Positions 1 to 48,007 of a stretch of DNA of 48,007 nt are shown piece by piece. A program made the position numbers and the translations under genes. This stretch comes from a virus: IMG/VR virus record IMGVR_UViG_3300045988_078200, one strand, 5' to 3'. The first letter of the stretch is position 1. Every line of letters starts with the position of its first letter. The notes beneath the pieces were generated by a model that saw nothing but the letters and a program-made list of their open reading frames with translations, was not told the origin of the DNA and did no database searches.

Positions 1-119
1 GAAAGCCTGAACGACCTGATCGAGACGGCGACGGACAGAATCGCGGCGGAGGTTTTGGGGCTAACCACAGAGCAATACGCGGCGGAAGTGCAGGCCGCGG
101 CGGAGAAAGCAAAAAAAGA
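1..119. repeat. Terminal direct repeat, copy 1. It is identical to 47889-48007, indicating circular closure or terminal redundancy.
   Basis: Read directly. GAAAGCCTGAACGACCTGATCGAG...GGCGGAGAAAGCAAAAAAAGA is present at both window ends, 119/119 identical. Confidence 0.97.
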
Positions 120-126
120 AAGATGA
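1..126 (+). CDS. 3' end of the junction-spanning RHH-like gene that starts at 47754. The stop TGA is at 124-126.
   Basis: Position 1 is in frame with the ATG at 47754 (offset 135 nt). The translation ...ESLNDLIETATDRIAAEVLGLTTEQYAAEVQAAAEKAKKER ends at 124-126. Confidence 0.65.
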   Translation, partial: ESLNDLIETATDRIAAEVLGLTTEQYAAEVQAAAEKAKKER

Positions 127-136
127 ATGAGCATAG

Positions 137-172
137 AAAACGGCGGGCGTTGAATCATGCCCGCCGTTTTTT
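137..172. terminator. Bidirectional intrinsic terminator between two convergent genes.
   Basis: AAAACGGCGGGC (137-148) pairs with GCCCGCCGTTTT (159-170). An A-run lies upstream and a T-run downstream. Confidence 0.75.
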
Positions 173-173
173 C

Positions 174-992
174 TTACCCGTTCAACGCCGCGTGCTGGTA
201 AAAGTCGTCGCAGATCACGGGAATGTTGTTGTAATCGAAGTTGTCGAAGTTGATCTTGCCGATGGTGTCTTTGTAGAACGTCGCTTTCATCACGGTTTCG
301 GTGGACGTGTTTCCGTAAGCGTCCACGAGCGGGAAAGACCAGAAAAGCGTTACGCGCCCGATGTCGTCGCGGGATTGCAGGGATTCCAGAATGTCGGCGG
401 CCTGCAACAGCATTCCTTTCCGAACCATATTCGAGGTTAAATTATCTTTCCCGGAAAGATAGATGTCCACAAAGGAGCCGTCCGAACTTTCCCCGACGCT
501 GGCCGCGTCGTAAATACTGACATCTTCTTTTTCGGCATTGGCCGCGGTGATCGCGTCGTCAACTGCCTGTTCCAGCGTGGCCGGAGTTTCCGGCGCGGCG
601 GGGTCATCCGTGGGCGCGGGTTCTACGGGAGCCGGGGCGGGGTTCGGGTAAAGTTCCTCCCCGTTGTATTCCACGCGGTCAACCACGCCGTCGGTGTAAT
701 AGACATCGTACACGTAAAGCCCGGCGGAAACCTGACAATGCCCGTCGTCGCCCGCCTTTCTGGTGACATTTGTTACTTTTGCTTCCATGCCGCAGGACAC
801 AAGGACGATGAATACTTCATCGGCCTGTTCCGGCGTGATCGCCATACCGGAAGAAAGCGCGCCTTGCGAATCGGCGTAAAAGTCGTACTGTTCGGACAAT
901 TCGGCGTGCTTGGGTGTGTCGTAGTCCGCAAGACAGCCGGAGAGGGACAGCGCAAGGCAGACGGCGAGAAGCAGGGAAATCAATCTTTTCAT
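174..992 (-). CDS. Lipoprotein of two domains joined by a Pro/Ala-rich linker. Function unknown.
   Basis: 272-aa ORF. The N-terminus MKRLISLLLAVCLALSLSGC gives a signal peptide plus an LSGC lipobox. Confidence 0.8.
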   Translation of the reverse strand: MKRLISLLLAVCLALSLSGCLADYDTPKHAELSEQYDFYADSQGALSSGMAITPEQADEVFIVLVSCGMEAKVTNVTRKAGDDGHCQVSAGLYVYDVYYTDGVVDRVEYNGEELYPNPAPAPVEPAPTDDPAAPETPATLEQAVDDAITAANAEKEDVSIYDAASVGESSDGSFVDIYLSGKDNLTSNMVRKGMLLQAADILESLQSRDDIGRVTLFWSFPLVDAYGNTSTETVMKATFYKDTIGKINFDNFDYNNIPVICDDFYQHAALNG

Positions 993-1400: not shown

Positions 1401-1433
1401 TTACTTGCGTGAGTATGAAGCGCATGTTATAAT
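1401..1433 (+). promoter_or_regulatory. Sigma-70-like promoter TTGCGT-N17-TATAAT, overlapped by a degenerate copy of the 16-bp palindromic operator.
   Basis: The -35 TTGCGT is at 1405-1410 and the -10 TATAAT at 1428-1433. TTACTTGCGTGAGTAT (1401-1416) matches 47697-47712 at 15 of 16 positions. Confidence 0.6.
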
Positions 1434-1477: not shown

Positions 1478-1508
1478 AAAGGACCCGCCCGGCTGGGGCG
1501 GGTCCTTT
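1478..1508 (+). terminator. Leader hairpin (terminator- or attenuator-like) between the 1405 promoter and the transposase start.
   Basis: AAAGGACCCGCC (1478-1489) pairs with GGCGGGTCCTTT (1497-1508) across a 7-nt loop. The downstream T-tract (GCTTTA) is weak. Confidence 0.45.
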
Positions 1509-1527
1509 GCTTTACGGAGGGTATCGC

Positions 1528-2577
1528 ATGGGACACGTATTCAGTCACCTGTCAAAGATGGACCGATATAAAATCGAAGCGTTGCTGAACAAGGGGATTT
1601 CAAAGCAGGAAATCGCGGACGAATTACATGTGCATGTAAGCACGATTTACCGGGAGATCAAGCGCGCCCGCTGGCAGTATTTGGACGGTGATACATGGAT
1701 TACAGAAGATCGCTATAACCCGGACGGGGCGGAAAAGCGATACCGCGAAAACCTCGCCGCAAAAGGCGCGCCGCTGAAAATTGGGAAAGACTTTGAACTT
1801 GCGGAATACATAGAACAAAAGATTATCGAGGAAGATCGTTCGCCCGCCGCGGCCCTTGCCGAAATCAAGTTGGAGGGACGGACGTTCAAAACCTCGATTT
1901 GCGTAAGCACGCTTTACAGTTACATTACAAAGGGCGTTTTCCTGTCCCTTACCAATAACAATTTGCCGGAGAAATCGAAGCGGAAGCGGGAGTACAAGAA
2001 AGTTGAAAAGACCGGAAAGCGTGCGTCGTATGGGAAAAATATTGAAAAACGCCCGGACGAAGTGGACCAGAGAAGCACTTTCGGACATTGGGAGGGCGAC
2101 ACGGTTTACAGTAAAAAAGACGGGTCAAAAGCCCTGTTTGTGCTGACAGAGCGTTTGACCCGATGGGAAATCATTACAAGAATTAAAGACCGGACGGCGG
2201 CAAGCGTTGTAAAGGCAATGGACCGCATAGAACGGAAATTCGGCGCGGACCTTTTCGCAAAGGCATTCAAGACAATCACATTCGACAACGGGGGCGAGTT
2301 CTCCGACGTGAAGCGGCTGGAACGGTCCGCGGTGCGAAAGGGAAAGCAGAGGACAGCGGCTTACTACTGTCACCCGTATTCATCGTATGAACGCGGGTCA
2401 AATGAGTGCCAGAACAAAATGATTCGCCGGAAGTTTCCGAAAGGAACTGATTTCGGAAAAGTGTCCACGGCGGAGATCGAGGCGGCGGAAGCGTGGATGA
2501 ACAATTATCCGCGTGAAATATTGGGATGGAAAACGGCTGAAATCTGCTTCCGGGAGCAGATCGCCGCCCTCGCCTGA
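1528..2577 (+). CDS. IS30-family DDE transposase/integrase.
   Basis: GGAGGG precedes the ATG at 1528. The N-terminal HTH is ISKQEIADELHVHVSTIYREIKR. The catalytic core shows HWEGDTV, TFDNGGEF and YYCHPYSSYERGSNECQNKMIRRKFPKGTDF. Confidence 0.88.
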   Translation: MGHVFSHLSKMDRYKIEALLNKGISKQEIADELHVHVSTIYREIKRARWQYLDGDTWITEDRYNPDGAEKRYRENLAAKGAPLKIGKDFELAEYIEQKIIEEDRSPAAALAEIKLEGRTFKTSICVSTLYSYITKGVFLSLTNNNLPEKSKRKREYKKVEKTGKRASYGKNIEKRPDEVDQRSTFGHWEGDTVYSKKDGSKALFVLTERLTRWEIITRIKDRTAASVVKAMDRIERKFGADLFAKAFKTITFDNGGEFSDVKRLERSAVRKGKQRTAAYYCHPYSSYERGSNECQNKMIRRKFPKGTDFGKVSTAEIEAAEAWMNNYPREILGWKTAEICFREQIAALA

Positions 2578-15011: not shown

Positions 15012-16253
15012 ATGGGAAAATTCAATCTGAATCAGATTTTGAACAACGCGTCGCGGCAGGCGGCGGAGGGCGGGAACACCCCGCCCCGCCCCGCTGAAAG
15101 CGAGATAAAGAAAATCAGCGTCTTTGACCTTGTGCCGTCGGAAGATAACTTCTATTCCATGCGGGAGATTGAAGAACTGAAAGCGGCAATCGAGATCGCC
15201 GGGAAAGTTCTGCAAAACCTGACCGTTGTTCCGCTGGACGGTGGGAAATACAAGGTCATTGCAGGCCACCGCCGCCGCCTCGCGTCGCTGGCCCTTGTGG
15301 AAGATGGAAAGCCGCAATATGAATTCGTCACCTGTTCCGTGGAGCCGAACGAAGAGGCGGCGGAAGATCAGGAAATCCGGGACGGCCTGAACCTGATTGT
15401 CACCAACTCCCAGCGGGAGAAAACGGCATGGGATAAGATCGAGGAAGTGCGCTACTTGCGGGACGTGCTGGAAAAGGCAAAGACCCGCCCGCGGTTCGTG
15501 GCCGTCCTGCAAAGAATTGTCGCAACCGTGTTCGGGGACAGCGAGGTTCAGGCAGACGGAACCCGCGATTTTATCGCAAAAGTGCTTCACACAAGCCCGG
15601 CGCAGATCGGGCGGTATGACACCATCATTCGCCACCTGTCCCCGGAATTCAAAGAAGAACTGAAAGCAGACCGCATAAACCTTTCGACCGCCTATGAACT
15701 GGCGGGATTGCCGGAAGAGGACCAGCGGGCCGCGTTCGAGGAATACCAGAGAACCGGGGAAATTTCCATCAAGGCCGCACGGGAGCGGAAGCCGCAAGCG
15801 GCTCCGTCCCCTCCCACGCCGCAGGACGAAGAGAAAAACACCCCGCCCGCCGAACCCGTCCGGGAGCGGGAGCAGACACCACCGCCCCCGGCGCATTGCA
15901 TACCGTCCACCGTACCACAACCGGGAATCGACTGGAACGAGGAAACGGGGCGGGAAATGCCGGAGGAAAGCCCACAGGACGCGCAGGACGCGCCGGAAGC
16001 GAGCGGGGCGGGAAAAGACACGGCCAACAGAGAAACCGTCGCAAAACCAGCGCAGACGCGAAAGCCGCAAGCGACGCAGAGTGCGGGGCTTGGGATTTGC
16101 CCTTACTGCGGAAAACCGTTTGACGCGGCGCGGTCAATCGAATACAGCATTCGAGGAACGGAGGGGCGGGAGCCTGTGACATGCCCGAAGTGCGGCGGGA
16201 AAATCGAAATCCGGTGTACGGTTTCCTATTGCTGTTCCCCGGTGGAATCGTGA
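15012..16253 (+). CDS. parB: ParB-family protein with an N-terminal ParB/Srx domain, an HTH, a Pro-rich linker and a C-terminal zinc ribbon.
   Basis: VPLDGGKYKVIAGHRRRLASLAL carries the GxRR box. HTSPAQIGRYDTIIRHLSPEFKEEL is the HTH. The C-terminus reads CPYCG...CPKCG. Confidence 0.8.
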   Translation: MGKFNLNQILNNASRQAAEGGNTPPRPAESEIKKISVFDLVPSEDNFYSMREIEELKAAIEIAGKVLQNLTVVPLDGGKYKVIAGHRRRLASLALVEDGKPQYEFVTCSVEPNEEAAEDQEIRDGLNLIVTNSQREKTAWDKIEEVRYLRDVLEKAKTRPRFVAVLQRIVATVFGDSEVQADGTRDFIAKVLHTSPAQIGRYDTIIRHLSPEFKEELKADRINLSTAYELAGLPEEDQRAAFEEYQRTGEISIKAARERKPQAAPSPPTPQDEEKNTPPAEPVREREQTPPPPAHCIPSTVPQPGIDWNEETGREMPEESPQDAQDAPEASGAGKDTANRETVAKPAQTRKPQATQSAGLGICPYCGKPFDAARSIEYSIRGTEGREPVTCPKCGGKIEIRCTVSYCCSPVES

Positions 16254-29470: not shown

Positions 29471-29631
29471 GAAGCCCGGCCCGCTGGTGGCGGCGGGAAT
29501 GCTTCAAACTGGCACAGGCGACCTTTACGCCCGTCCCATTCTGGCTTGACATGACCGTAACGGAGATCACGGCATGGATTGAGGACATCAACGCCGCCAC
29601 AGCGGAGCAGAAGAACCAGAAAGCGAGGTGA
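29045..29631 (+). CDS. Tail assembly chaperone, -1 frameshift product (gpE+E'-like).
   Basis: A T_TTT_TTA slippery heptamer lies at 29446-29452. The -1 frame stays open to the TGA at 29629-31 and encodes ...FTPVPFWLDMTVTEITAWIEDINA, a GpE'-like pattern. Confidence 0.65.
29446..29452 (+). other. Candidate -1 programmed ribosomal frameshift site.
   Basis: TTTTTTA sits in X_XXY_YYZ register relative to frame 0. Confidence 0.6.
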
Positions 29632-32600
29632 AGAATTTGGCAGGAAGAAAGGAATATGAACTTCTCTTCAAACTGACCGCCGCATTGGGCGGAAACTTCA
29701 ATGCGGCATTCAGTAGCGCGCTGAATACCACGCGGCAAATGCAAAACAGCCTGCAAAAGCTAAATTCTATCACCGGAAAGATCGACGCTTACAAAAAGCA
29801 GGAAGCCGCCCTTGAATCGAACCGTCAAAAGCTGGAACGACTGACCGCGGAGCATGAACGACTGCAACGGGAGATCAGCGAAACCGGAGAGCCGACGGAA
29901 GAACTGCGGGCAAAGATGGCGCAGAACGAACGACAGATCGCGGCGACCACATCGAGAATCGAGCAACAGGAAGCGCGGCTGAACGAATTGGGCGGAGAAC
30001 TGTCCGACGCAGGGGTGAACACCTCCCGTCTGACCGAGGAAAACGAACGATTATCCAAAAGTTACGAGCGGGTCAAAAAAAGTCAAGAGGAATTGGCAAA
30101 GGTAAACGCCGCGTTGGAACAGAACAACGCGGCGATTTCAAAGACCAAAACGCAACTTGCGGGGACCGTCGGAACCCTTGCGGCACTTGGGACGGCGATT
30201 TACGCCGGGCCAGTGAGAAAGGCCGCGGAGTTTGAAGCGCAGATGTCCACCGTAGAAGCCATTTCCGGCGCGACCGCGGATGAAATGAAGCGTTTGTCGG
30301 ATGAAGCAAAGAGAATGGGCGCGACGACGCAGTTTACCGCCGTGGAAGCCGGAAAAGCCCTCGAATACATGGCAATGGCCGGATGGAAAACAGACCAGAT
30401 GTTGGGCGGCTTGCCGGGAATTATGAACCTTGCGGCGGCATCCGGCGAGGACTTGGGGCAGGTTTCCGACATTGTGACGGACGCGCTGACCGCATTTAAC
30501 ATGACGGCAGATCAGGCGGGCCGCTTTGCGGACGTGCTGGCGCAAGCGTCGAGCAATTCAAATACCAACGTGGCAATGATGGGCGCGACTTTCCAAAAAG
30601 TGGCCCCCGTCGCGGGTGCGCTGGGATATTCCGTCGAGGACGTTTCCCTTGCAATCGGCTTGATGGCGAATGCGTCCATAAAATCGGAAGTGGCCGGAAC
30701 CTCGCTGAAAACCGCCCTTGCGAACATGGCGAAGCCGACAAAGCAGATGAAAGAGTACATGGACAAGTACGGAATCAGCCTGACGAACGCAGACGGAAGC
30801 ATGAAGTCATTCCGCGAAGTGGTGGACAACCTGCGAAGCAGTCTTGGCGGGCTGTCTGAAACGGAGCAGGTGGCGGCGGCAACGGCCATTTTCGGCAAGG
30901 AATCCTTTGCGGGTATGCTGGCGATCGTCAATGCAAGCGAGGCGGATTTTCAAAAATTGTCCGATTCGGTCAACAATTCCGCAGGCGCGGCGGAGCGAAT
31001 GGCACAAATCAAACTGGACAACTTTCAAGGAAAAGTAACGCTGTTGCAATCCGCGGTTGAGGGCCTGCAAATTGCGCTGGGCGACGCGCTGTTACCGACG
31101 TTTACCGAGGGTGCGGAAAAAGCCGCGGAACTGATCTCCAAACTGACCGAGTTTATCAACGCAAACCCGGAATTGGTGCGCACGATTACAAAGGTTGTCA
31201 CCGGACTTCTCGCGTTCAAGGCGGCGGGGTTGGTGGCAAAGCTGGCGTTCCTTGACCTGAAAGGCGGGGTTCTGACCATTCAAAAGGTCATGGCCCTGTT
31301 CAAAGGCAAATTCGCCCTTGCGGGCGTGGAAGCCGTGGGCTTTGCGTCTAAAGTCAAGGGCGTTGCAAAAAGCGTCACAGGGTATTTCGGCGGAATCGGA
31401 AGCGCGGCGGGCGGCGTAGGCCGCGCGTTCGGGCAGATGTTCGCCGGAACGAAAATCGGAAACCTGTTTTCCGGTATCGGCGGAGCCGTGGGCGGCGTGT
31501 TTACCCGCGTGTTTTCCAGCGTGGGCGGCGTTGCTACGCGGGCGTTTACCGGAGTAGCGGGAACCATTACCGGAATATTGGGGCGGGCCGGGGCCGCAGT
31601 TGCGGCGGGTCCGCTTGGAAAAATCGGAAGCGTGGTTGCAAAGGGGTTCGGGAAGCTGTCAACCCTGTTCGGCCCGCTTCAAAAGCTGGGCGGCGCGATC
31701 TTGGGACCGTTCAGCGGCATTCTTGGGAAAGTGCTTCCCGTCGTGGGTGTAATCACCCTGATTATTTCGGCGGTGCAAATCCTACGGGACAATCTGGATA
31801 AGGTGCGCGAGGTCATCCGAAACGTGTTCGGTGACGCGGGCGTTGAAGTGTTCGACAAAATCGTGTCCGCGATCTCGAATATCGGAAGCACAATCCAGAG
31901 CATCTTCACAGACGGGAACTTGGGCGGAGCGCGGGACTTCCTGATCAACCTGTTCGGAGAGGAAGCGACGGGCGTTATCGACGGCGCGATCACGGTTTTG
32001 CAAACTGTGTGGAATATCCTTTCCGGCTTTATCGAGTTCGTGAATACCTACGTCCGCCCGATCGTGGAACAGATTTTTACATTCATCGTTCAAACGGTGC
32101 TTCCGCAGATCGCGCAGGCGTTCGCGGATTGGGCACCGACAATCGCATCCATCCTGCAAGGGCTGGCAACCGTCGTTTCGACGATCGCAACGGCCATTAT
32201 GTCCGTGATTCAGTTTCTTATGCCGACGATTCAAAATATTATCAGCGTTGCGCTGACGACCATTCAAGGGGTTGTGTCCGGCGCGCTGACGGCGATTAAA
32301 GGCATTGTGGACGTGTTCGCGGGCATCTTCACGGGGGATTGGTCCCGTGTGTGGGAGGGCGTGAAAGGGATATTCAGCGGCGTTTGGAATTCCCTGAAAA
32401 GCATTGCAAGCGGCGTTCTGAACGGAATTATCGGCCTGATCAACGGCGTAATTTCCGGGCTGAACAAACTGAAAATTCCTGATTGGGTCCCCGGCATCGG
32501 CGGAAAGGGCATCAACATTCCGTTGATTCCGACTTTTGCAAAAGGCACGAAAAGCACGCCTGACACGTTCATAGCGGGCGAGGCGGGCGCGGAACTTGTC

Positions 32601-32945
32601 ACGAATGCAAAGAACCGGACCGTTTTCAACGCGGCGGAAACCGGGGCGATCTTCCGCAATCTCGCAAACACCGTCAACACCATTCGGGCGGGGGTTGGCG
32701 TTCCGGCCCTGCAACTGGCTTATGCAGGCGCGGAGGCCCCCAGCGTGTCGGCACCGTCTATCGCGTCCGGCGCACGGCAAGCGTCGATCGTCATTCACAG
32801 CGCGCCCGTTTTCCATGTTGGGAGCGAGGCGCAGGCGGAGGACATCGAAGAACTGCTACGCAGGCACGATGAAGAACTGCTGGACGAAATCGAAGAGCGG
32901 AAGCGGCAACAGGAGGACGACGAAAGGCGGCGGAACTATGACTAA
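29628..32945 (+). CDS. Tail tape measure protein (TP901-type core).
   Basis: 1105 aa. The core is ...EAISGATADEMKRLSDEAKRMGATTQFTAVEAGKALEYMAMAGW... with Gly-rich TM-like repeats. Confidence 0.9.
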   Translation: MKNLAGRKEYELLFKLTAALGGNFNAAFSSALNTTRQMQNSLQKLNSITGKIDAYKKQEAALESNRQKLERLTAEHERLQREISETGEPTEELRAKMAQNERQIAATTSRIEQQEARLNELGGELSDAGVNTSRLTEENERLSKSYERVKKSQEELAKVNAALEQNNAAISKTKTQLAGTVGTLAALGTAIYAGPVRKAAEFEAQMSTVEAISGATADEMKRLSDEAKRMGATTQFTAVEAGKALEYMAMAGWKTDQMLGGLPGIMNLAAASGEDLGQVSDIVTDALTAFNMTADQAGRFADVLAQASSNSNTNVAMMGATFQKVAPVAGALGYSVEDVSLAIGLMANASIKSEVAGTSLKTALANMAKPTKQMKEYMDKYGISLTNADGSMKSFREVVDNLRSSLGGLSETEQVAAATAIFGKESFAGMLAIVNASEADFQKLSDSVNNSAGAAERMAQIKLDNFQGKVTLLQSAVEGLQIALGDALLPTFTEGAEKAAELISKLTEFINANPELVRTITKVVTGLLAFKAAGLVAKLAFLDLKGGVLTIQKVMALFKGKFALAGVEAVGFASKVKGVAKSVTGYFGGIGSAAGGVGRAFGQMFAGTKIGNLFSGIGGAVGGVFTRVFSSVGGVATRAFTGVAGTITGILGRAGAAVAAGPLGKIGSVVAKGFGKLSTLFGPLQKLGGAILGPFSGILGKVLPVVGVITLIISAVQILRDNLDKVREVIRNVFGDAGVEVFDKIVSAISNIGSTIQSIFTDGNLGGARDFLINLFGEEATGVIDGAITVLQTVWNILSGFIEFVNTYVRPIVEQIFTFIVQTVLPQIAQAFADWAPTIASILQGLATVVSTIATAIMSVIQFLMPTIQNIISVALTTIQGVVSGALTAIKGIVDVFAGIFTGDWSRVWEGVKGIFSGVWNSLKSIASGVLNGIIGLINGVISGLNKLKIPDWVPGIGGKGINIPLIPTFAKGTKSTPDTFIAGEAGAELVTNAKNRTVFNAAETGAIFRNLANTVNTIRAGVGVPALQLAYAGAEAPSVSAPSIASGARQASIVIHSAPVFHVGSEAQAEDIEELLRRHDEELLDEIEERKRQQEDDERRRNYD

Positions 32946-38769: not shown

Positions 38770-39023
38770 GATGGAACACCGGGAACGAGTAAGCCGGACG
38801 GCTGAAAGCAGAGGACCATCATCAAAGGAAGCCGCATCCCTCCGCCGCGGTGACAGCGCGACGGTAAATACAAGATTGGTGAAGCAAGGCCCACGGGAAC
38901 CAGCTTCCGCCCCGCCACGGGCGCGCGGCGGGGTCCGATGATGAAGCATTGCGACGGCAGGCGGAGGACCGCTTGCCGCCCCCGCAAGGCGGATTCTATA
39001 CACGGCAAGGAGCATTTTTTATT
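38770..39023 (+). ncRNA. DGR spacer region between TR and RT. It is ORF-free, GC-rich and likely a structured part of the DGR RNA.
   Basis: There is no plausible + strand ORF. Several GC stems are present, for example CCCCGCC...GGCGGGG around 38910-38936. Assigned by position and by analogy with the Bordetella DGR. Confidence 0.5.
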
Positions 39024-40214
39024 ATGCAACAAACAGATTTCGAGCGGGTCCACGATTTCGGGAACCTATACGCGGGGTTCTTAAAGGCCCGCCGGGGCAA
39101 ACGGGGCAAAGCGAGCGTCGCAAAATTTGAAGCAAACCTGCTGGAAGCCCTTTGCCTGCTTTCGGAAATGCTGAAGAACAAGACCTACCGCCCGTCGGAC
39201 TATTTCGTGTTCCGGGTCTACGAGCCAAAAGAACGCATCGTTATGACCAACGCGTTCAAAGACAAGGTGGTTCAGCATTCTTTATGTGACAATGTGTTGG
39301 AGCCTGCATTTTCCCGCGCCTTTATCCGCGACAACTACGCGTCGCAAAAGGGGCGCGGGACGCATGACGGCCTGTATCGGCTGGAAGCGTTTATGCGGTC
39401 CTACTATTTCGAGCGGAAAGCGCGGGAAGAACAACGGTGCCGGGAGGAGGGGTTGCCGCGGCCCGACCCGCGCGCCGCCCGCTATGCGGACGGCTGGGTC
39501 CTGAAATGCGACATATCAAAATATTTCTACTCGATTCCGCATGAACCATTGAAAGCAATGGTGCGCCGCTTCATCCGGGACCCGGACGTTCTATGGCTTG
39601 TCGATATGATCATTGACAGCACGGACGACCCCGGAATTCCGATCGGCAACCAGACTTCACAATGGTTCGCGGTCATGTACCTTTCGGGGCTTGACCATTT
39701 CATAAAAGAGAAATTGGGAATCCGCTACTATGGGCGGTATATGGACGACTTTTACTTGATTCACGAGGACAAGGCGTATTTGCAGTATTGCCGCCGGGAG
39801 ATTGAAAAGTACGTGGCCGGGCTGGGATTGAAGCTGAACAACAAGACAAATATTTTCCCGCTACGGAACGGAATTGATTTTCTTGGATTCCGAACCTATA
39901 TGACCGACACGGGGAAGATCGTGCGCAAGGTAAGGAGGAACAGCAAATGTAACGAGCAACGGAAGTTGAAGAAACAGCGGGGCTTGCTGGACAAGGGGAA
40001 AATCACCCTTGCGGCAATCGAACAGTCTTACGGAAGCTGGCGGAGCCACGCCGAAAAGGGCAACTGTCACCACCTGATCAGGGAAACCGACAGGAAGTTC
40101 AACCGCCTGTTCCCGGAAAGCAAATTGCTATGCAGAAAGAACAAAAGGCCGGAAAAGGAAAGCTATTTCTGCGGTTTTATCGCTGACCCGCGGGAAACGC
40201 TTTCCGAACAGTAA
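39024..40214 (+). CDS. DGR reverse transcriptase.
   Basis: IPIGNQTSQWFA is the DGR-specific [ILV]GxxxSQ motif. GRYMDDFYLI carries YMDD. The gene is adjacent to the TR. Confidence 0.9.
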   Translation: MQQTDFERVHDFGNLYAGFLKARRGKRGKASVAKFEANLLEALCLLSEMLKNKTYRPSDYFVFRVYEPKERIVMTNAFKDKVVQHSLCDNVLEPAFSRAFIRDNYASQKGRGTHDGLYRLEAFMRSYYFERKAREEQRCREEGLPRPDPRAARYADGWVLKCDISKYFYSIPHEPLKAMVRRFIRDPDVLWLVDMIIDSTDDPGIPIGNQTSQWFAVMYLSGLDHFIKEKLGIRYYGRYMDDFYLIHEDKAYLQYCRREIEKYVAGLGLKLNNKTNIFPLRNGIDFLGFRTYMTDTGKIVRKVRRNSKCNEQRKLKKQRGLLDKGKITLAAIEQSYGSWRSHAEKGNCHHLIRETDRKFNRLFPESKLLCRKNKRPEKESYFCGFIADPRETLSEQ

Positions 40215-40239: not shown

Positions 40240-41958
40240 ATGCCGAAAGCATTAAGCACCCTCGCCGTTGGCGCGCTGGTGAAAGACACCGGAACGCTTT
40301 ACAACGGGAAACCGATCATTTGGAAGATCGCGGACAAGAACCACGCCGGGTTTCCGGCGAATTCCGTCACGCTGATCACGGAGCGCATTATCTCGCTGAA
40401 ATGCTTTGACGCTATTGAGCAGAGCAACAGCGACGGAAACCGCCGTTCCTACGGAAACAACCGCTGGATTTGGTCAAATATCCGCCGATGGCTGAACAGT
40501 CAAGCGGGGGCGGGCGCGTGGTACGCGGCCCAGCACGGGCAGGACGCGCCGCCGAACAACGCGAACGTGTGGAGCAACTACAACGAGTACGAGGCGGAAG
40601 CGGGCTTTCTGGCGGGATTCTCCGCGAACTTTATTGCCGCCCTGCTGACCACGAACCGGACCGTCGGCAAAGCGCAGGTGGACGGCGGCGGGACGGAGAC
40701 ATGCACCGACAAAATCTTCTTTGCCACGTCAACGGAAGTCGGCTTGTCGGGCGACGTGGTGGCCGGAAGCAAACTTGCGCTGTTCAGCGACGACGCTTCC
40801 CGGCAGGCAAAGCCGACGGCGGAGGCGGTAAGCAAGAGCGAGTACCAGACAAGCAGTTTGAACGCAAATTCGTTCTGGTACTGGTGGCTTGCGGACGCTT
40901 ACGCGTCGAGTTCGGACGACGTCCGCAACGTCACTTCCTCCGGCGCGATGGACTGGTGCAGCGCGTACGCCGGCAACCGGGGCGTTCGCCCGCTTTGTAA
41001 TCTAAAATCTGAAATCTTGGTATCTGACAGCCCGGATTCGGACGGCGCATACAGCATCGTATGGAACCGCGCCCCGTCGGTCCCGGATTCCATCGACGTT
41101 CCGAGCGACGTTCGGGGCGGCGAAAGCCTGATTGTGAATTGGGGAACGTCCACCGACCCGGACAACAACCTTTCGGGGTACGTCCTCGAACGGCAGTACA
41201 ACGGCGGCGGATGGGCGCAGGTCTACAAGGGAATCAACCGGACGCACACCGACCAGATCACAAAGGGATGGGAGAATGTGGCGTACCGGGTCAAAGCATA
41301 CGACAGCGCGGGCGCGGAATCGGCGTACAAGACCAGCGCGACGCGGACGGTCATCAACAACACGCCGCCCACGATCAGCGGGACAGATACGGACCTTGGG
41401 GCAAAGACCGGAGCGTTCGACCAGAAATACACCGTCACAGACCCGGACAGCGGCCAGACGATCACCGTCGTTGAGAAGATCGACGGGGCGCAAAAGCGGT
41501 CCTACGCCGCGACCAGCGGGCAGGAATACACGTTCAGCGTGACCGCGGATGAATGGCGGAAGCTGTTGAACGGGTCCCACACGCTGACGGTGACGGCGAC
41601 GGACAATTACGGCGGAACCGCGACGCGGACTTACACATTCAGCAAGAACGAAACCGAAATTGAACTGACCCTTGCAACGCCCCTTGAAGCCGACGACATG
41701 GTGACAAAGGCGATCATGTCCATTACCCGGCAGATTCCGGCGGGCGCAGAATTCACCGTGGAGGCGTGCAACAACGGCAACGACGATTCCCCCACGTGGG
41801 AGGACGTTACGCAGGCCGTCACCAGCGGGAGCAAGTTTTTCCTTTCCAACGACAGCAAGACGGCGGCGGAATGGGGATTCAATTTCCGAATCAAGGTGAA
41901 GCGGAACAGCGCAAGCGGGGATTGCTTCATTTCTTCCGTGGGAGGTAATTTTGAATGA
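40240..41958 (+). CDS. DGR target 1. Fibre- or receptor-binding-like protein with the variable domain at about aa 222-253, followed by FN3/Ig-like domains.
   Basis: 572 aa. WYWWLADAYASSSDDVRNVTSSGAMDWCSAYAGNRGVRPLCNLKSEI contains VR1. It is followed by SLIVNWGTSTDPDNNLSGYVLERQYNGGGWAQVYKG (FN3-like). Confidence 0.85.
   Translation: MPKALSTLAVGALVKDTGTLYNGKPIIWKIADKNHAGFPANSVTLITERIISLKCFDAIEQSNSDGNRRSYGNNRWIWSNIRRWLNSQAGAGAWYAAQHGQDAPPNNANVWSNYNEYEAEAGFLAGFSANFIAALLTTNRTVGKAQVDGGGTETCTDKIFFATSTEVGLSGDVVAGSKLALFSDDASRQAKPTAEAVSKSEYQTSSLNANSFWYWWLADAYASSSDDVRNVTSSGAMDWCSAYAGNRGVRPLCNLKSEILVSDSPDSDGAYSIVWNRAPSVPDSIDVPSDVRGGESLIVNWGTSTDPDNNLSGYVLERQYNGGGWAQVYKGINRTHTDQITKGWENVAYRVKAYDSAGAESAYKTSATRTVINNTPPTISGTDTDLGAKTGAFDQKYTVTDPDSGQTITVVEKIDGAQKRSYAATSGQEYTFSVTADEWRKLLNGSHTLTVTATDNYGGTATRTYTFSKNETEIELTLATPLEADDMVTKAIMSITRQIPAGAEFTVEACNNGNDDSPTWEDVTQAVTSGSKFFLSNDSKTAAEWGFNFRIKVKRNSASGDCFISSVGGNFE
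40903..40997 (+). repeat. DGR variable region VR1.
   Basis: 95 nt align with the TR. There are 11 mismatches, 10 of them at TR adenines. Confidence 0.9.
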
Positions 41959-43337: not shown

Positions 43338-44993
43338 ATGACACAGGAACAGAAAGCATTTATTGAGCGGGTGGGCGCGCTGGCCGCGGCGGATATGCAA
43401 AAAAGCGGCGTGCTTGCCTCGCTGACAATCGCGCAGGCGATTTTGGAAAGCGGCTGGGGAAAATCCGGCCTGACCGTCAAGGCAAACGCCCTGTTCGGCA
43501 TCAAGGCGGGGACAAGCTGGAAAGGCCGGGTTTACAGCACGAAAACGCAAGAGTGTTACGACGGCGTGAACTTTACCACCGTGACGGCCCTTTTCCGGGC
43601 ATACGACAGTTGGGAAGAGAGCGTGGAGGACCATTCGGCGTTGCTGACGGGCGCGGCCCGGTACAAAGCCGTTGTCGGGGAGCGGGACTATAAGACCGCT
43701 TGCCGGGCGATCAAGGCGGCGGGCTACGCCACGGACCCGAACTACACGGACAAGCTGATTCAGATTATCGAATCATACGGCCTGACGGCCTACGACGGCG
43801 CAGGACAGGCCGGAGCGGGCGGCGGGTCAAATATCACGGCTGGGGCGGAACGCCCCGCAGACGCGAAAGGAGAGGGCAAAATGAAAGCGTCTGAATTCAT
43901 CAAGAAACTGCAAGACATCGTGGACCATTACAAGACACTGTACGTCATGGGCTGTTTCGGCGCGCCCCTGACCGGGGGCAACGTGTCCCGGTACTGCCAG
44001 AACCACAGCTACAACAAGCAGGCGGCGCGCACGGCCATGATCAAGGCCGCGGCGAATCAGAACCCGCCCGTTTTCGGCTTTGACTGCGTGTGCATGATCA
44101 AGGGCGTTTTGTGGGGCTGGAACGGCGACGCGTCCAAAACCTACGGCGGCGCGTCCTACGCATCCGGGGGCGTGCCGGACATCGGAGCCGACACCATGAT
44201 TACGAAGTGTTCCGGCGTTTCCACCGATTTCAGCAAGATTGTTCCGGGGGAGGCTGTCTGGCTTTCGGGTCATATCGGCGTTTACATCGGCGGCGGAAAG
44301 GTGATCGAGTGTTCCCCGGCGTTCAAGAACTGCGTACAGGTGACGGCGTGCCTGAACATCGGCGCAATCTCCGGCATGAACGGGCGCAGGTGGACCAAAC
44401 ACGGTAAATTGCCGTATATCACCTACGACACCGCGGGCGCGGCCACAGGCGGCGCAGGAACGGCGCAGAAGCCTGGCGGGACCTCCGATACCTCCGGCGC
44501 GCTGGCGTTCGCCGTGGGCGACGTGGTGCGCTTTACGGGCAACGTGCATTACACCAACGCAAGCGCGGCCAGCGGGAAAGCGTGCAAGCCGGGCAAGGCG
44601 AAAGTCACCATGATTTCAAAGGGCGCAAAACACCCGTACCACCTTGTCAAAGAGAGCGGCGGCGGGTCCACGGTTTACGGCTGGGTCAACGCGGCGGACG
44701 TTCAGAGCGAGGCGGACGCGGCCATTGACAAGCTGGCGGGGCTGGGGGTCATCAACTCCCCGGACTACTGGAAGAACGCCGTTGCCGCCGGAACGGTGCA
44801 ATACCTCGATCTTCTCTTTATCGGCGCGGCGGAGTACATCAAAAAGGCCGGGACGCGGTGCGCAACGCCGCAAGCGGGCGTTGACGCGCTGGCAAAAGCC
44901 GGGGTCATCAACTCACCGGACTATTGGTTGCAGAATTACGGAAAGTTGCAGAGCCTTGGAACTCTTCTTTGCGCGCTGGGCGGGTCCGTGTAA
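43338..44993 (+). CDS. Multidomain endolysin: a GH73 glucosaminidase, an NlpC/P60-like peptidase, an SH3-like domain and two C-terminal repeats.
   Basis: AQAILESGWGKS...YATDPNYTDKLIQII marks GH73. FDCVCMIKG...GHIGVYIGGGKVIE marks the Cys/His peptidase. The LAxxGVINSPDYW motif is duplicated. Confidence 0.85.
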   Translation: MTQEQKAFIERVGALAAADMQKSGVLASLTIAQAILESGWGKSGLTVKANALFGIKAGTSWKGRVYSTKTQECYDGVNFTTVTALFRAYDSWEESVEDHSALLTGAARYKAVVGERDYKTACRAIKAAGYATDPNYTDKLIQIIESYGLTAYDGAGQAGAGGGSNITAGAERPADAKGEGKMKASEFIKKLQDIVDHYKTLYVMGCFGAPLTGGNVSRYCQNHSYNKQAARTAMIKAAANQNPPVFGFDCVCMIKGVLWGWNGDASKTYGGASYASGGVPDIGADTMITKCSGVSTDFSKIVPGEAVWLSGHIGVYIGGGKVIECSPAFKNCVQVTACLNIGAISGMNGRRWTKHGKLPYITYDTAGAATGGAGTAQKPGGTSDTSGALAFAVGDVVRFTGNVHYTNASAASGKACKPGKAKVTMISKGAKHPYHLVKESGGGSTVYGWVNAADVQSEADAAIDKLAGLGVINSPDYWKNAVAAGTVQYLDLLFIGAAEYIKKAGTRCATPQAGVDALAKAGVINSPDYWLQNYGKLQSLGTLLCALGGSV

Positions 44994-45431: not shown

Positions 45432-45454
45432 AATTGTCCGATTCGGACAACACG

Positions 45455-45491
45455 AAGCCCGCCGGGGAATGACCCCCGGCGGGCTTTTTTT
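45455..45491 (+). terminator. Strong intrinsic terminator at the end of the rightward late operon, shared with the convergent leftward operon.
   Basis: AAGCCCGCCGGGG pairs with CCCCGGCGGGCTT and is followed by T7. Confidence 0.85.
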
Positions 45492-45909
45492 ATGCGCTGA
45501 CCGTGGACACGTCAAGCCGGAACGCGAGGTCAAGGACCTTTGCGCGGGTTGCGGCGTTGCGCTGAACGGCATCTTCCAACGTGGCACGAACCCCAGCGGG
45601 AGCGAGAGACAGGCCGTAGGCAATCAGGCGATCTTCCACCGCTTTCAGCGCGGCGCGGGCGGCGTTCAGTTCTTCTTCAAGCCCGGCGGAAGCAATGAGC
45701 GCGGCGCATTCGGCGTTTGCCTTTTCAAAGGCCGCGTCATCCTCCATGCAGTAAAGGAATTCGGGAACGGAGCCGTCGGGATTGACAATGCCGTTGTCGG
45801 CAATGAATTTCTTTTCGATGGCCTCTTGTCGGGATTCGACTTCCTGCACGCAGGCTTTGGCGACCATATAGGCCCGCTGGAACTTGTTTGCAGTTCTTTT
45901 CATGTTCAT
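45490..45909 (-). CDS. Hypothetical helical protein.
   Basis: ORF 45490-45930. The ATG at 45909 overlaps the upstream stop (ATGA). Confidence 0.6.
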   Translation of the reverse strand: MNMKRTANKFQRAYMVAKACVQEVESRQEAIEKKFIADNGIVNPDGSVPEFLYCMEDDAAFEKANAECAALIASAGLEEELNAARAALKAVEDRLIAYGLSLAPAGVRATLEDAVQRNAATRAKVLDLAFRLDVSTVSA

Positions 45910-46001
45910 TCCCCTTTCTTGCGGCGGCAATGGACCGCGGCGGCGATAATCAGTTTCACAATGGCAACGACGATCAGGAAGATTCCGAGTTTTGCAAGCA
46001 T
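45906..46001 (-). CDS. 31-aa hydrophobic peptide with a basic tail.
   Basis: The sequence is MLAKLGIFLIVVAIVKLIIAAAVHCRRKKGE. It is translationally coupled to the downstream gene. Confidence 0.4.
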   Translation of the reverse strand: MLAKLGIFLIVVAIVKLIIAAAVHCRRKKGE

Positions 46002-46075
46002 GGTTGACAGTTCAGAAGAAAAAGTGTATTCTATGGGTGGGCGGTGAACCCGCCCATAGAATACGGGGTTTCGGC

Positions 46076-46195
46076 TTACGTGTGCTTATCAATCAGGAGT
46101 AACGCAAGCCCTACCAGAAAGTCCACGATTGCGGTTATTACGATGGTGCGAACATCGACCCGCGATTTCGTGGGCTTTTTCTTTTTCTTCTTCAC
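46076..46195 (-). CDS. 39-aa peptide with a poly-Lys N-terminus and a C-terminal TM.
   Basis: AAAGGGGG lies 7 nt before the GTG at 46195. The sequence is VKKKKKKPTKSRVDVRTIVITAIVDFLVGLALLLIDKHT. Confidence 0.45.
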   Translation of the reverse strand: MKKKKKKPTKSRVDVRTIVITAIVDFLVGLALLLIDKHT

Positions 46196-46219
46196 CGTTT
46201 CACCCCCTTTCTGTTTATT

Positions 46220-46248
46220 ATTATACTCACGTGAGTATGAAATGTCAA
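46220..46248 (-). promoter_or_regulatory. Leftward consensus promoter TTGACA-N17-TATAAT with the perfect palindromic operator ATACTCACGTGAGTAT (46223-46238) in its spacer and -10 element.
   Basis: On the minus strand the sequence reads TTGACAtttcatactcacgtgagTATAAT. Confidence 0.7.
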
Positions 46249-46269
46249 GAGGAAAACGAAAAAAATTCA

Positions 46270-46303
46270 AAAAAATTACGCCGCCGTGGGAGGTTCGGCG
46301 GCG
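46270..46303 (-). terminator. Intrinsic terminator ending the upstream leftward operon.
   Basis: On the minus strand, CGCCGCCG pairs with CGGCGGCG and is followed by TAATTTTTTT. Confidence 0.7.
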
Positions 46304-46308
46304 CGGGG

Positions 46309-46659
46309 TCAATCGGTATTTTCAATCAGGCGCATCACACGCAAGGCGAGATCACGGGCGGGCGCGCCCTCCACGCTATCAGCATAACGGCCCAGCACAC
46401 CAAGCAAGCGCGCCTTGTACGCGTCAACCTCCGTCGGTATCTTTACGCCGTAGCGGGTTTCGTAGCAGTCGCGGCAGAGGTAAGGCGCGTTTGCGGTGAT
46501 CGCCCCGTTGCTTTCGTCGGTGTACTGATACGCCCGGCAACTGCAAAGGGGCTTTCCACAGGATTCACAATGCCCGGAGAACTTGCGGGAGCGGGTGCGG
46601 GCCGTCCGGGTCATGCGGTGGGGCTTATTCGCCACAGAGACGCCGCCTCCCCTCTTCAT
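46309..46659 (-). CDS. Zinc-finger-like hypothetical protein. The start is uncertain.
   Basis: ORF 46309-46755. The motifs are CESCGKPLCSC...CRDC. Candidate ATG starts lie at 46659 and 46614. Confidence 0.45.
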   Translation of the reverse strand: MKRGGGVSVANKPHRMTRTARTRSRKFSGHCESCGKPLCSCRAYQYTDESNGAITANAPYLCRDCYETRYGVKIPTEVDAYKARLLGVLGRYADSVEGAPARDLALRVMRLIENTD

Positions 46660-46831
46660 CAAGAAGCGCGTCAAGCTGTTCACAGGTGACGACGCGGGCA
46701 GATGGATATTTGCAGACGTTCCGATAATACCGGGCCGTTTTAACGGCGAGGTCATAATCTGCGCTTGTCACCGCGGAAATGTGGCCCGCAGAATCGAAAG
46801 CAACAGCGGCATAACAAACAGAATCGTTCAT
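46625..46831 (-). CDS. Small hypothetical protein, 68 aa.
   Basis: GGAGG lies upstream of the ATG at 46831. Confidence 0.5.
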   Translation of the reverse strand: MNDSVCYAAVAFDSAGHISAVTSADYDLAVKTARYYRNVCKYPSARVVTCEQLDALLDEEGRRRLCGE

Positions 46832-46865
46832 CGGGAAACCTCCATAGATTAGATTTTGATTTCGG

Positions 46866-46898
46866 AACAAGGGGCGGCGGTTTGCGCCGCCCCTTGTT
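46866..46898. other. 14-bp perfect-stem hairpin between two leftward genes, with no U-tract.
   Basis: AACAAGGGGCGGCG pairs with CGCCGCCCCTTGTT across a 5-nt loop. Confidence 0.5.
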
Positions 46899-46901
46899 GG
46901 T

Positions 46902-47471
46902 TTATCCGGCCACGAACACGCCCAGCGGAGAGCCACCCGCAGACCGCCACCCGCGGCGGTGAATGTCGGAGAGGCGGACCCGTTCGGGACGGTCCGGGCG
47001 GCTGTCCCAGCGAATCAGGGCAAACACGCCGCCGCGGAAGAAACGACCGTCGGGGACATCCTCGAAGCCGATCACCGTTCCGCCCTCCACGGGATAGCAG
47101 GAACCGCAGACGCATTCGACGCGCTGGCCGATCATCACAATCACAGTTCCGTTGTCGGCGGGCTGGGAAATGGTGATCACGTTGGCGGGGGCCGCGTCCG
47201 CTACCGGAGCTGGGGCGGCAGGCTTTTCCACGGCGGGGGCCTCTTCCACCTGAACCTCGCGTTCAGCGCGGAACGTGGGAGCCATAGAATAGCGGTCCGG
47301 CTGGATATATTCGCCGGAATCATCGAAGCGAATCTTGGAACGGCGGGATTCGCCCATATACTCATAAGAAACGGTTTTTGCGGTCCGCCCGGTGATCTTG
47401 ATGGAGAAAACGCACTCGCTGTCACAAATGCTACGCGTGAAGTATTCCTTGCCAATCTCAAACTTGTTCAT
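46902..47471 (-). CDS. Hypothetical two-domain protein with a Pro/Ala linker.
   Basis: GGGAGG lies upstream of the ATG at 47471 (MNKFEIGKEY...). Confidence 0.6.
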   Translation of the reverse strand: MNKFEIGKEYFTRSICDSECVFSIKITGRTAKTVSYEYMGESRRSKIRFDDSGEYIQPDRYSMAPTFRAEREVQVEEAPAVEKPAAPAPVADAAPANVITISQPADNGTVIVMIGQRVECVCGSCYPVEGGTVIGFEDVPDGRFFRGGVFALIRWDSRPDRPERVRLSDIHRRGWRSAGGSPLGVFVAG

Positions 47472-47620
47472 GTGATTACCTCCCATATATGAAACCAGAA
47501 GTTGAAGTGTTGTCGTTACCGTGTCGGCCCCCTTTTCGTGTCGGCCCGTAAGGTTGGCCCCCGCCGTATTCTTTACGCCCCGGCGGGTGGGCGGCTTGCG
47601 CTTCCCTCTTTCTGTCTCTT

Positions 47621-47649
47621 ATTATACTCACGTGAGTATGAAAAAGCAA
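47621..47649 (-). promoter_or_regulatory. Leftward promoter TTGCTT-N17-TATAAT with the perfect palindromic operator ATACTCACGTGAGTAT (47624-47639).
   Basis: On the minus strand the sequence reads TTGCTTtttcatactcacgtgagTATAAT. About 45 bp are similar to the 46205-46250 region. Confidence 0.65.
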
Positions 47650-47668
47650 GATGGGAAGTTGCACAAAA

Positions 47669-47684
47669 ATACTCACGTGAGATT
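47669..47684. promoter_or_regulatory. Degenerate copy of the operator.
   Basis: ATACTCACGTGAGATT matches the palindrome at 14 of 16 positions. Confidence 0.5.
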
Positions 47685-47696
47685 GTATAGATTTTC

Positions 47697-47729
47697 ATAC
47701 TTGCGTGAGTATTTGAAAAATGATATAAT
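47697..47729 (+). promoter_or_regulatory. Rightward promoter TTGCGT-N17-TATAAT, overlapped by the operator variant ATACTTGCGTGAGTAT.
   Basis: The -35 is at 47701-47706 and the -10 at 47724-47729. It lies 25 nt upstream of the RHH gene start. Confidence 0.65.
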
Positions 47730-47753: not shown

Positions 47754-48007
47754 ATGGAAAAGAAAAAGTATGCGTGCAACACGCGGGCGAAGAACAAGTG
47801 GAACGCCGAAAATTACGACCGCCTTTACCCCTATGTGAAGATCGGGAAAAAGGCGGTCTACCAAAAAGCGGTAGAAGCTGGCGGATTTGAAAGCCTGAAC
47901 GACCTGATCGAGACGGCGACGGACAGAATCGCGGCGGAGGTTTTGGGGCTAACCACAGAGCAATACGCGGCGGAAGTGCAGGCCGCGGCGGAGAAAGCAA
48001 AAAAAGA
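47754..48007 (+). CDS. Small ribbon-helix-helix/Arc-like putative regulator. This is the 5' part; the gene runs off the window end and continues at 1-126.
   Basis: ATG at 47754 follows GGAGG (47741-47745). The translation is MEKKKYACNTRAKNKWNAENYDRLYPYVKIGKKAVYQKAVEAGGFESLNDLIETATDRI... The frame stays open through the terminal repeat. The gene lies directly downstream of a TTGCGT-N17-TATAAT promoter. Confidence 0.65.
   Translation, partial: MEKKKYACNTRAKNKWNAENYDRLYPYVKIGKKAVYQKAVEAGGFESLNDLIETATDRIAAEVLGLTTEQYAAEVQAAAEKAKK
47889..48007. repeat. Terminal direct repeat, copy 2, identical to 1-119.
   Basis: Same comparison as copy 1. Confidence 0.97.

Follow-up and report, generated by a model that had tools for sequence, protein, structure and literature searches.

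Five palindromic sites in predicted promoters of an IScream-like phage genome, probable operators of an 86-residue ribbon-helix-helix-like protein

In the viral record IMGVR_UViG_3300045988_078200 of IMG/VR (48,007 nucleotides; this whole stretch is called the window), a 16-base palindrome (ATACTCACGTGAGTAT) was found repeatedly in the promoter regions around a gene for an 86-residue protein that resembles ribbon-helix-helix (RHH) proteins. The window was circular: its last 119 bases (47889-48007) overlapped exactly with its first 119 (1-119), and the unique genome was therefore 47,888 bp. The break between 48007 and 1, which falls inside the RHH-like gene, is without biological meaning. An earlier reading of the same DNA, made from its letters alone (the original prediction), had described the palindromes as spanning a circular junction, but this is a break of the assembly only and the real joint of the phage ends lay at about 2630-2634. 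It had rightly let the RHH gene run across the break, and the start of the gene was corrected to 47754.

Two perfect and three imperfect copies of the palindrome were located (Table 1), all at the positions given in the original prediction. These five sites with at most 3 mismatches were compared with 0.04 expected from dinucleotide-preserving shuffles, and 0 of 100 shuffles reached five. Over the whole genome no further site had fewer than 5 mismatches, the next-best matches having 5. All five sites lay within promoter regions and were spread over about 3.2 kb. The flanks of the two perfect copies were duplicated over 48 nt (46203-46250 and 47604-47651, 88% identical), in good agreement with the duplication of about 45 bp noticed before. 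The perfect palindromes filled the spacer and the -10 element of the two leftward promoters, and the imperfect sites O3 and O5 supplied the TTGCGT -35 hexamer of the two rightward ones. All four promoters had been read correctly in the original prediction, but its term "near-consensus" fitted P-L1 only. P-L2, P-R and P5 had perfect -10 hexamers together with -35 hexamers of 3/6 matches, and for the latter reason they were not listed by the consensus scan. Both plus-strand promoters carried a TGn extended -10. Among relatives, the -35 of P-L2 was mostly TTGACT (alignment A3), the TTGC and the -10 of P-R were conserved in alignments A2 and A3, and P5 was conserved in at least 15 relatives.

The distribution of the palindrome was followed from the protein and from the motif. 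With the protein, 74 viral and 80 genome loci (132 unique) were gathered, and flanks of roughly 4 kb were fetched on each side. These loci came from Oscillospiraceae, Lachnospiraceae, Ruminococcaceae, Acutalibacteraceae, Tissierella and many Paenibacillaceae; single loci of related phages are cited below by L numbers. At 95 of the 132 unique loci a TAC-N8-GTA palindrome was present within 260 bp upstream of the homolog, and its density was 4.9/kb in these upstream regions compared with 0.08/kb elsewhere in the fetched DNA (60-fold). With the motif, an exact scan of IMG/VR for the 16-mer gave 22 loci, and 12 of them, from genomes of 39-56% G+C, showed the promoter-embedded layout of the window, called the cassette here. 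The homolog of the 86-residue protein lay beside the motif in 11 of these 12; in the twelfth the motif was at the edge of the locus and the homolog 82 bp off on the same contig. At the non-cassette loci of the motif the homolog was found in 0 of 10.

Two layouts of the cassette were revealed by the intergenic alignments, one with two sites (O1 and O3 32 bp apart, alignment A2) and one with three sites as in the window (spacings of 45 and 28 bp, O1 to O3 73 bp, alignment A3). In both layouts O1 filled the spacer and -10 of the leftward promoter, O3 gave the TTG of the -35 of the homolog's own promoter, and the invariant columns were those of the operator and of the promoter hexamers. O1 and O3 were about 3 or about 7 helical turns apart, and therefore on the same face of the DNA. 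The leftward neighbours varied (g189-like proteins, small Lys/Arg-rich membrane proteins, a ParB-N-like protein and others), and the sole constant neighbour of the cassette was the gene of the 86-residue protein. From this comparison, the leftward genes appeared to be variable cargo rather than a second regulator. In Paenibacillus prophages, which otherwise share nothing with the phage and have unrelated neighbours, identical ATACTCACGTGAGTAT and ATACTTGCGTGAGTAT sites, separated by 32 bp, preceded homologs whose N-terminal arm and strand were the same, and neither an IS30 nor an XRE gene was found in the fetched flanks of roughly 4 kb. The cassette therefore appears to be a portable regulatory module and not a peculiarity of one phage.

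The outer TATAC/GTATA bases of the operator were nearly constant among relatives, while the central bases followed the residues of the predicted beta-strand of the adjoining protein; strand residues 23-28 covaried with the central 6-8 bp. The strand RLYPYV was accompanied by the centre CACGTG or close variants at 38 of about 46 loci, RIYPMV by AACGTT, RLYP(F/V)V by TGCG(T/C)A, (S/N)LRIVV by TGTACA, RIPVIV and RI(A/S)LVV by TGCACA, and QFLITV by TATATA. In a clade with the arm TDYKRDF instead of TRAKNKY, the outer bases were changed to ATCT..AGAT. The distant P5 operator also matched the local type of its own genome, being GTTAGTAT in L068 and L081 with their AACGTT cluster and GTGAGTAT in the window.

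In the alignment of 31 homologs of the 86-residue protein the invariant core consisted of R11, Y21, D22, R23, Y25, P26, K33, Y36, A39 and S47, and N49 was nearly invariant. The AlphaFold2 model (mean predicted local distance difference test score, pLDDT, of 82, and about 90 from residue 30 onward) contained a strand (21-29), a helix (32-43), the turn GGFESLN, a helix (48-64) and an extra helix (68-85). This beta-alpha-alpha order is that of RHH proteins, which have a short G-x-S/T-x-N type turn between the helices, and a conserved arm of about 20 residues (TRAKNKWN) was present at the N-terminus. A profile search of 1.84 billion cluster representatives gave 564 relatives at E <= 0.001. Among 97 relatives, Pfam matches were obtained to TacA1 (17, best 2.2e-5), HicB (13), Arc (5, best 7.9e-6) and RHH_1 (3, best 3.1e-5), and further weak ones to DUF6290, RHH_5, ParD and NikA-like families. 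The top ranks of the family profile against the PDB were Arc (E 0.01), AmrZ (E 0.019) and pArc, each weak and all in the same direction. In Foldseek the top matches included ParD RHH antitoxins, at template-modelling (TM) scores of 0.53-0.65 and non-significant E of 2-7. From the predicted fold and these family-level links, each weak but in agreement with the others, the family was placed as an unclassified branch of the RHH (Arc/MetJ) superfamily, closest in style to Arc and AmrZ.

Two more specific assignments of the protein were rejected. It is not a member of Pfam Arc (PF03869), to which it had no match itself and which was touched by only 5 of the 97 distant relatives. It is not a type II antitoxin, because no toxin gene accompanies or adjoins its gene, which is followed by a bidirectional terminator and then by a lipoprotein gene on the opposite strand or, in relatives, by the integrase gene. 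Homologs are labelled "antitoxin" in some database sources. No homolog was present among the plasmids of PLSDB, and Dulem virus 34 was the only phage of INPHARED with one. A literature search on RHH prophage regulators in Clostridia returned nothing specific.

Based on the genomic association, the covariation and the predicted fold, the palindromes were taken, with a probability of about 0.75, to be the operators of the 86-residue protein of the RHH superfamily. The core idea of the original prediction, one protein in control of four promoters, was strongly supported by the comparative evidence and was narrowed to this protein. Several points weighed against the assignment. Searched alone, the protein gave no significant Pfam (E <= 0.01), NCBIfam or PDB sequence match, and Foldseek found nothing at E <= 0.001 in the PDB with the monomer model, in which the strand is without its paired partner. 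At 37 of the 132 homolog loci no site was found by the generic TAC-N8-GTA definition. The code was not one-to-one, for RLYPYV occurred also with AACGTT in L066 and L070, and the covariation was partly confounded by shared descent.

The TGCACAAA box (47659-47667) was conserved directly 5' of O2 in alignment A3. In most relatives an inverted copy of the box, TTGTGCAA, was found directly 3' of O2, where the window had the degenerate TTGTATAG (47685-47692). The box may be the site of a second factor. The hexamer TTGCAC next to O2 was considered as the -35 of an extra promoter and rejected on direct reading, as no acceptable -10 was present at 16-18 nt on either strand.

If the palindromes are RHH operators, dimers of the protein would bind each TATAC-N-GTATA palindrome, with the paired beta-strands in the major groove reading the central CACGTG and the arm TRAKNKWN probably contacting the outer ATAC bases. 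At the leftward promoters, a perfect and presumably high-affinity site over the spacer and -10 would block RNA polymerase. At P-R and P5 the weaker variant ATACTTGCGTGAGTAT would double as the -35 hexamer, centred near -31.5, a repressing position, so that the protein would repress its own gene and the integrase gene only at higher concentration. The cargo operons would be repressed tightly, and the repressor and integrase genes weakly and in a self-limiting way; the integrase would be further damped by its conserved leader hairpin. On entry into a naive cell the four promoters would fire, with a burst of cargo, integrase and repressor, and would then be shut off as the protein accumulates, a predicted course like that of P22 Arc or of plasmid "zygotic induction". 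In the prophage, the autoregulated level of the protein would hold the cargo operons and the integrase low. A bistable switch of the lambda CI/Cro type was rejected: a tripartite operator and divergent promoters are present, but there is a single constant regulator gene and the leftward genes are variable cargo.

Besides the RHH protein, which fitted, the original prediction had named ParB and the XRE protein as candidate binders, and neither held up, ParB having no detectable homolog in a complete relative with the cassette and XRE having repeats of its own. The ParB-like protein would have to read the palindromes as parS-like or KorB-like sites, as centromere binder and global repressor at once. 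The central TCACGTGA is identical with the core of the chromosomal parS consensus TGTTNCACGTGAAACA, the cassette was accompanied by ParB homologs on several large contigs, and neither a convincing repeat for a separate parS near parAB nor any other parS-like repeat around it was detected. The three-site cassette was, however, present in the complete circular genome of Dulem virus 34 (45,046 bp) together with the RHH homolog, XRE and the IS30 gene, and tblastn gave no homolog of ParA, ParB or Rep there. The sites are fixed relative to the -35 and -10 and lie beside the RHH gene, about 17 kb from parAB, their centre tracks the RHH strand residues, and identical sites recur in unrelated contexts in Paenibacillus prophages; binding by the ParB-like protein was judged most improbable. 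We gave next to no weight to the XRE-family protein as a reader of the Cro/CI type. It is a helix-turn-helix (HTH) protein (HTH_3, 1.3e-8) whose stop codon abuts O5, and a 16-bp palindrome is typical of an HTH-dimer site. Its own triple repeat CTTTAACAC, however, was found at 1075, 1102 and 1127 (region 1075-1136) and nowhere else in the genome, two of the copies forming an inverted pair across the -35 of the leftward lipoprotein promoter. This repeat became TTACCAC in relatives with a diverged XRE and assorted independently of the palindrome type: in L068 and L081, with XRE 85-89% identical and TTAACAC repeats, the palindromes were yet of the AACGTT type. The fetched flanks of the cassette, roughly 4 kb to either side, were without a detected XRE gene in Paenibacillus and many other loci.

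If the phage borrowed the control of a host transcription factor, conserved throughout Firmicutes, this could account for the identical 16-mer in phages of Clostridia and of Paenibacillus, and CACGTG is a common palindromic core. Against this, at least six types of the centre had arisen in phages whose hosts are similar, and they changed along with the adjoining phage gene; the promoter-context site was found with this gene and not without it, and the sites were enriched 60-fold immediately upstream of it, which made a host factor very improbable. The IS30-type transposase or the truncated IS30 HTH protein might bind the sites, for example as subterminal enhancer or regulatory sites, with one palindrome directly upstream of the transposase gene, HTH_38 domains in both proteins and autoregulation being frequent among transposases of insertion sequences. 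The terminal repeats of the IS30 element differ from the palindrome (TGTCAATAGTAAATGCG at the right end, TGTAATATTAAATGCG at the left), the fetched flanks (roughly 4 kb to either side) of the cassettes in Paenibacillus and in many Clostridia contained no IS30 gene, and the operator type varied while the IS30 proteins remained 63-76% identical; the chance of this binder was considered negligible. Finally, the RHH-like protein itself might activate P-R and P5 and repress only the leftward promoters. The hexamer TTGCGT has only 3/6 matches to the -35 consensus, and some RHH proteins, such as AmrZ, both repress and activate. O3 is, however, centred at about -31.5, over the -35 itself, which is a repressing geometry unlike the -41.5 or -61.5 of activators, and the perfect -10 with its TGn extension makes a good -35, or help from an activator, less necessary at the rightward promoters. 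Activation was thus distinctly unlikely, and repression at all four promoters by the RHH-like protein was kept as the preferred reading.

Table 1. Positions of the features in the window
Feature	Coordinates	Strand	Description
P-L1	46220..46248	-	promoter; TTGACA (46248-46243)-17-TATAAT (46225-46220), consensus scan 12/12; layout kept in relatives
P-L2	47621..47649	-	promoter; TTGCTT (47649-47644)-17-TATAAT (47626-47621), direct reading
P-R	47701..47729	+	promoter of the RHH-like gene; TTGCGT (47701-47706)-17-(TGA)TATAAT (47724-47729), direct reading
P5	1405..1433	+	promoter ahead of the IS30-type gene; TTGCGT (1405-1410)-17-(TGT)TATAAT (1428-1433), direct reading
O-L1	46223..46238		candidate operator, perfect ATACTCACGTGAGTAT; fills 13 nt of the P-L1 spacer and 3 nt of its -10
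O-L2 (O1 of the three-site cluster)	47624..47639		candidate operator, perfect ATACTCACGTGAGTAT
O2	47669..47684		candidate operator, ATACTCACGTGAGATT, 2 mismatches; conserved TGCACAAA box just before
O3	47697..47712		candidate operator, ATACTTGCGTGAGTAT, 2 mismatches; includes the P-R -35 hexamer
O5	1401..1416		candidate operator, TTACTTGCGTGAGTAT, 3 mismatches; relatives have ATACTTGCGTGAGTAT
RHH-like gene, first 84 codons	47754..48007	+	continues at position 1
RHH-like gene, end	1..126	+	stop codon 124-126
Bidirectional terminator	135..176		after the RHH-like gene; z -5.24
g39	46076..46195	-	39 residues; Lys-rich N-terminus, single predicted membrane helix; opens the P-L1 unit
Hairpin	46026..46064	-	after g39, followed by a U-rich run; -27.6 kcal/mol, z -5.95
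Small open reading frame	45906..46001	-	31 residues, predicted membrane helix; downstream of the 46026-46064 hairpin
g139	45490..45909	-	139 residues; last gene of the P-L1 unit
Bidirectional terminator	45454-45487		ends the P-L1 unit
Leader of the g189 operon	47472..47614	-	about 140 nt; highly conserved element and hairpin with compensatory changes
g189	46902..47471	-	189 residues, two small beta-barrel domains
g68	46625..46831	-	68 residues; no functional match
g102	46309..46617	-	102 residues, Cys-rich; no functional match
Intrinsic terminator	46269..46304	-	ends the P-L2 operon, just upstream of P-L1; 9-bp GC stem and U7, z -2.87
XRE-family gene	1152-1400		HTH protein
Hairpin	1478..1511	+	between P5 and the IS30-type gene; 13-bp perfect stem and UUUGCUUU, U-run; z -3.59
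IS30-family DDE enzyme	1528..2577	+	NF033563 transpos_IS30, 9.4e-68; last gene before the right end
Truncated IS30-type gene	3624-3902		92 residues, HTH_38 as sole domain; 32% identity with the IS30 protein's N-terminus; inward of the left end by about 1 kb
Replication initiator	7348-8166	+
ParA	14003-14773	+
ParB-like protein	14880-16253	+	no Pfam match; phrog_4715, 1e-73
Candidate tape measure	29628-32945		1105 residues, read by eye
Reverse transcriptase	38949-40214	+	phrog_1423, 5.7e-132; RVT_1
DUF6273 protein	40240-41958	+	tail region
Candidate endolysin	43338-44993		551 residues, read by eye

The leftward units of the window were made of small genes. In the P-L1 unit, the hairpin after g39 is a candidate terminator or attenuator. 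The first leftward gene in many relatives encoded a protein of 31-49 residues, its tail rich in Lys/Arg and with a single predicted membrane helix, and such tiny membrane-protein genes were seen in L028, L035, L054, L058, L059, L062, L066 and L072. The second promoter copy (47604-47651) looks like a duplicate of this small-gene module without its small gene. The P-L2 unit had the order leader, g189, g68, g102 and terminator (46304-46269). Its leader was far better conserved than the surrounding genes: its hairpin showed 4 compensatory pair changes in 15 relatives (alignment A5) and preceded GGCCAACCUUACGGGCCGACACGAAAAGGGGGCCGACACGG, which was almost invariant even where g189 was only 44% identical, and GGCCGACACG was present twice. 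The leader may act as a structured RNA with a regulatory role, or as an iteron at the DNA level; a search of the whole window, leader included, against Rfam gave nothing at the gathering score. For g189, homolog search, alignment, AlphaFold2 and Foldseek gave no informative match. The leftward proteins had no match in Pfam, in PHROGs of known function or in NCBIfam, and PADLOC on them and their neighbours returned an empty result.

The rightward promoter P5 leads to the IS30-type gene. A GC-rich hairpin with a U-run was found ahead of this gene in every relative examined, whatever precedes it (L024-L027, L047, L158, L161-L178), and the 1478-1511 hairpin looks like an attenuator that limits integrase expression. 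In L158-L160 the integrase gene stood directly after the repressor gene and would be read from P-R through a similar hairpin, and for this reason control of the integrase by the RHH-like protein may be a conserved feature. P5 looks like a copy of P-R that was made necessary by the inserted lipoprotein-XRE module.

The plus-strand genes included a replication initiator, ParA, the ParB-like protein, a terminase, a portal protein, a major head/capsid protein and a reverse transcriptase beside a DUF6273 protein. Tail and lysis genes were also recognised by eye. The IScream phages, a class of gut Clostridia phages (Wirbel, Hickey et al., Nature 2025, PMC12823448) with a reported high abundance in humans, resemble the window in their full-length, outward-facing IS30 gene ending about 50 nt from the right end, in the truncated IS30 HTH gene near the left end, in the phage structural genes and in the Clostridia hosts. 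The cassette differs in its range, as it was also found outside the class, in Paenibacillus prophages whose fetched flanks contained no IS30 gene. In the main text of PMC12823448, the terms operator, repressor, promoter and inverted repeat do not appear. As the genome was that of an IScream phage, the IS30-family enzyme is therefore probably the phage's own integrase. The gene was syntenic in relatives, had diverged in parallel with its neighbours (68-95% identity) and was the last one before host DNA in integrated relatives, whose host flanks differed from each other (L158-L160, L161-L178). A recent passenger insertion of the IS30 gene was rejected on the same grounds of synteny, parallel divergence and position at the prophage end. 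No tyrosine or serine recombinase was found among the part of the open reading frames that was searched. The presence of Rep, ParA and ParB-like genes in a phage that integrates by a transposase means either that it also persists as a plasmid or that these genes have another role. Side by side in the tail region, with the reverse transcriptase directly upstream, the reverse transcriptase and DUF6273 genes are probably a diversity-generating retroelement.

The phage ends were joined in the window at 2602-2661, with the right tip at about 2630 and the left tip at about 2634. Similarity to integrated relatives reached as far as about 2630, and past this point the host DNA differed. The last bases of the right end are ...TTTTTTCGCATTTACTATTGACATTTNCG / CTATTGACATTTNCG, and the first of the left end are GNGNNTTGTAATATTAAATGCG. 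A scan with the left-end sequence gave 85 loci in 66 distinct contexts; 14 were independent circle junctions, TTGACATTTNCG-NNN-GNGNNTTGTAATATT, in which the 3-bp spacer varied (L243, L247-L249, L264, L277, L283, L292, L293, L295, L298, L300, L306 and L311), the rest included left ends beside unrelated host DNA, and the window had the same junction. About 30 nt beyond the integrated left end, TGTCAAG, which is like the phage right tip inverted, was frequent in the host DNA (L260, L266, L268, L269, L271, L272, L273, L321 and others), and the IS30-type enzyme may prefer such targets.

By the joining of the ends a promoter TTGACA-17-TAATAT was created (2619-2648, in the list of the consensus scan), which reads into the left-end genes from 2749. 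Its -35 TTGACA lies at the right tip and its -10 at the left tip, and it is whole only in the circular form, an arrangement known from insertion sequence circles, for example of IS911 and IS30. With this promoter, early transcription of the phage would require excision. Combined with an integrase held by the repressor, it would allow lysogeny without a repressor of lytic promoters. That IScream phages do without a classical repressor of this kind, the RHH hold on the IS30-type integrase through O3 and O5 preventing excision and the split junction promoter doing the rest, is a speculative idea which we regard as rather unlikely. If it were true, relief of the repression by the RHH protein would be the induction event and the palindrome regulon the master switch of the phage class.

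The significance of the cassette lies in a concrete predicted circuit, in which one repressor gene, five operators and four promoters are combined with at least six operator types and their distinct beta-strands. From the set of variants a recognition code can be read for an RHH subfamily without a model in Pfam or NCBIfam, and the operator variants suggest immunity groups among related prophages. In this circuit a domesticated IS30 transposase would also be controlled through a regulator of the phage. To our knowledge, the control of integration, excision and lysogeny in IScream phages has not yet been described. A literature search for six operator sequences gave one irrelevant match.

Several known systems resemble the predicted circuit in part. 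Phage Mu is likewise a phage with a DDE transposase that is gated by a small repressor (c, Ner) from operators near one end; unlike here, c and Ner are HTH proteins, the operators lie at the left end between the divergent Pc and Pe promoters, and no sequence relationship exists. RHH antitoxins (TacA, the C-terminal domain of HicB, ParD and CopG-like proteins) share the weak Pfam matches and the autorepression, predicted here, through palindromes in their own promoters, but here no toxin gene is co-transcribed and a terminator follows. The omega protein of the Inc18 plasmid pSM19035 and KorA/KorB of IncP plasmids are comparable as single small repressors of mobile elements which act on several scattered promoters, their own included, through one type of operator. 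Omega is also an RHH protein but reads tandem 7-bp heptads instead of palindromes, KorA and KorB are HTH and ParB-type proteins, and the functions regulated in these systems are copy number, partition and toxin-antitoxin genes. AmrZ of Pseudomonas aeruginosa gave the best full-length profile alignment, over arm, strand and both helices (3qoq, residues 9-62, E 0.019, marginal), and its N-terminal extension reportedly contributes to DNA binding in the published structure; it is, however, a chromosomal regulator of alginate and motility with unrelated operators.

The Arc and Mnt repressors of the immI region of the Salmonella phage P22 share with the predicted circuit of the 86-residue protein the small RHH type, an operator between -35 and -10, divergent promoters and self-regulation, as well as the transient burst and subsequent shut-off of a cargo gene after infection. 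Compared with Arc, the protein of the window has an N-terminal arm of about 20 residues and an extra C-terminal helix, and its proposed site is a 16-bp perfect palindrome instead of the 21-bp, partly symmetric site of Arc. In contrast to P22, no antirepressor gene could be identified in the window, and the control by the five operators here would extend to a DDE integrase. RHH repressors whose operators are embedded in promoters are a well-known kind of system; as far as the searched literature shows, the protein subfamily, the operator code, the spread as a portable cassette and the predicted hold on the integrase of an IScream phage are new.

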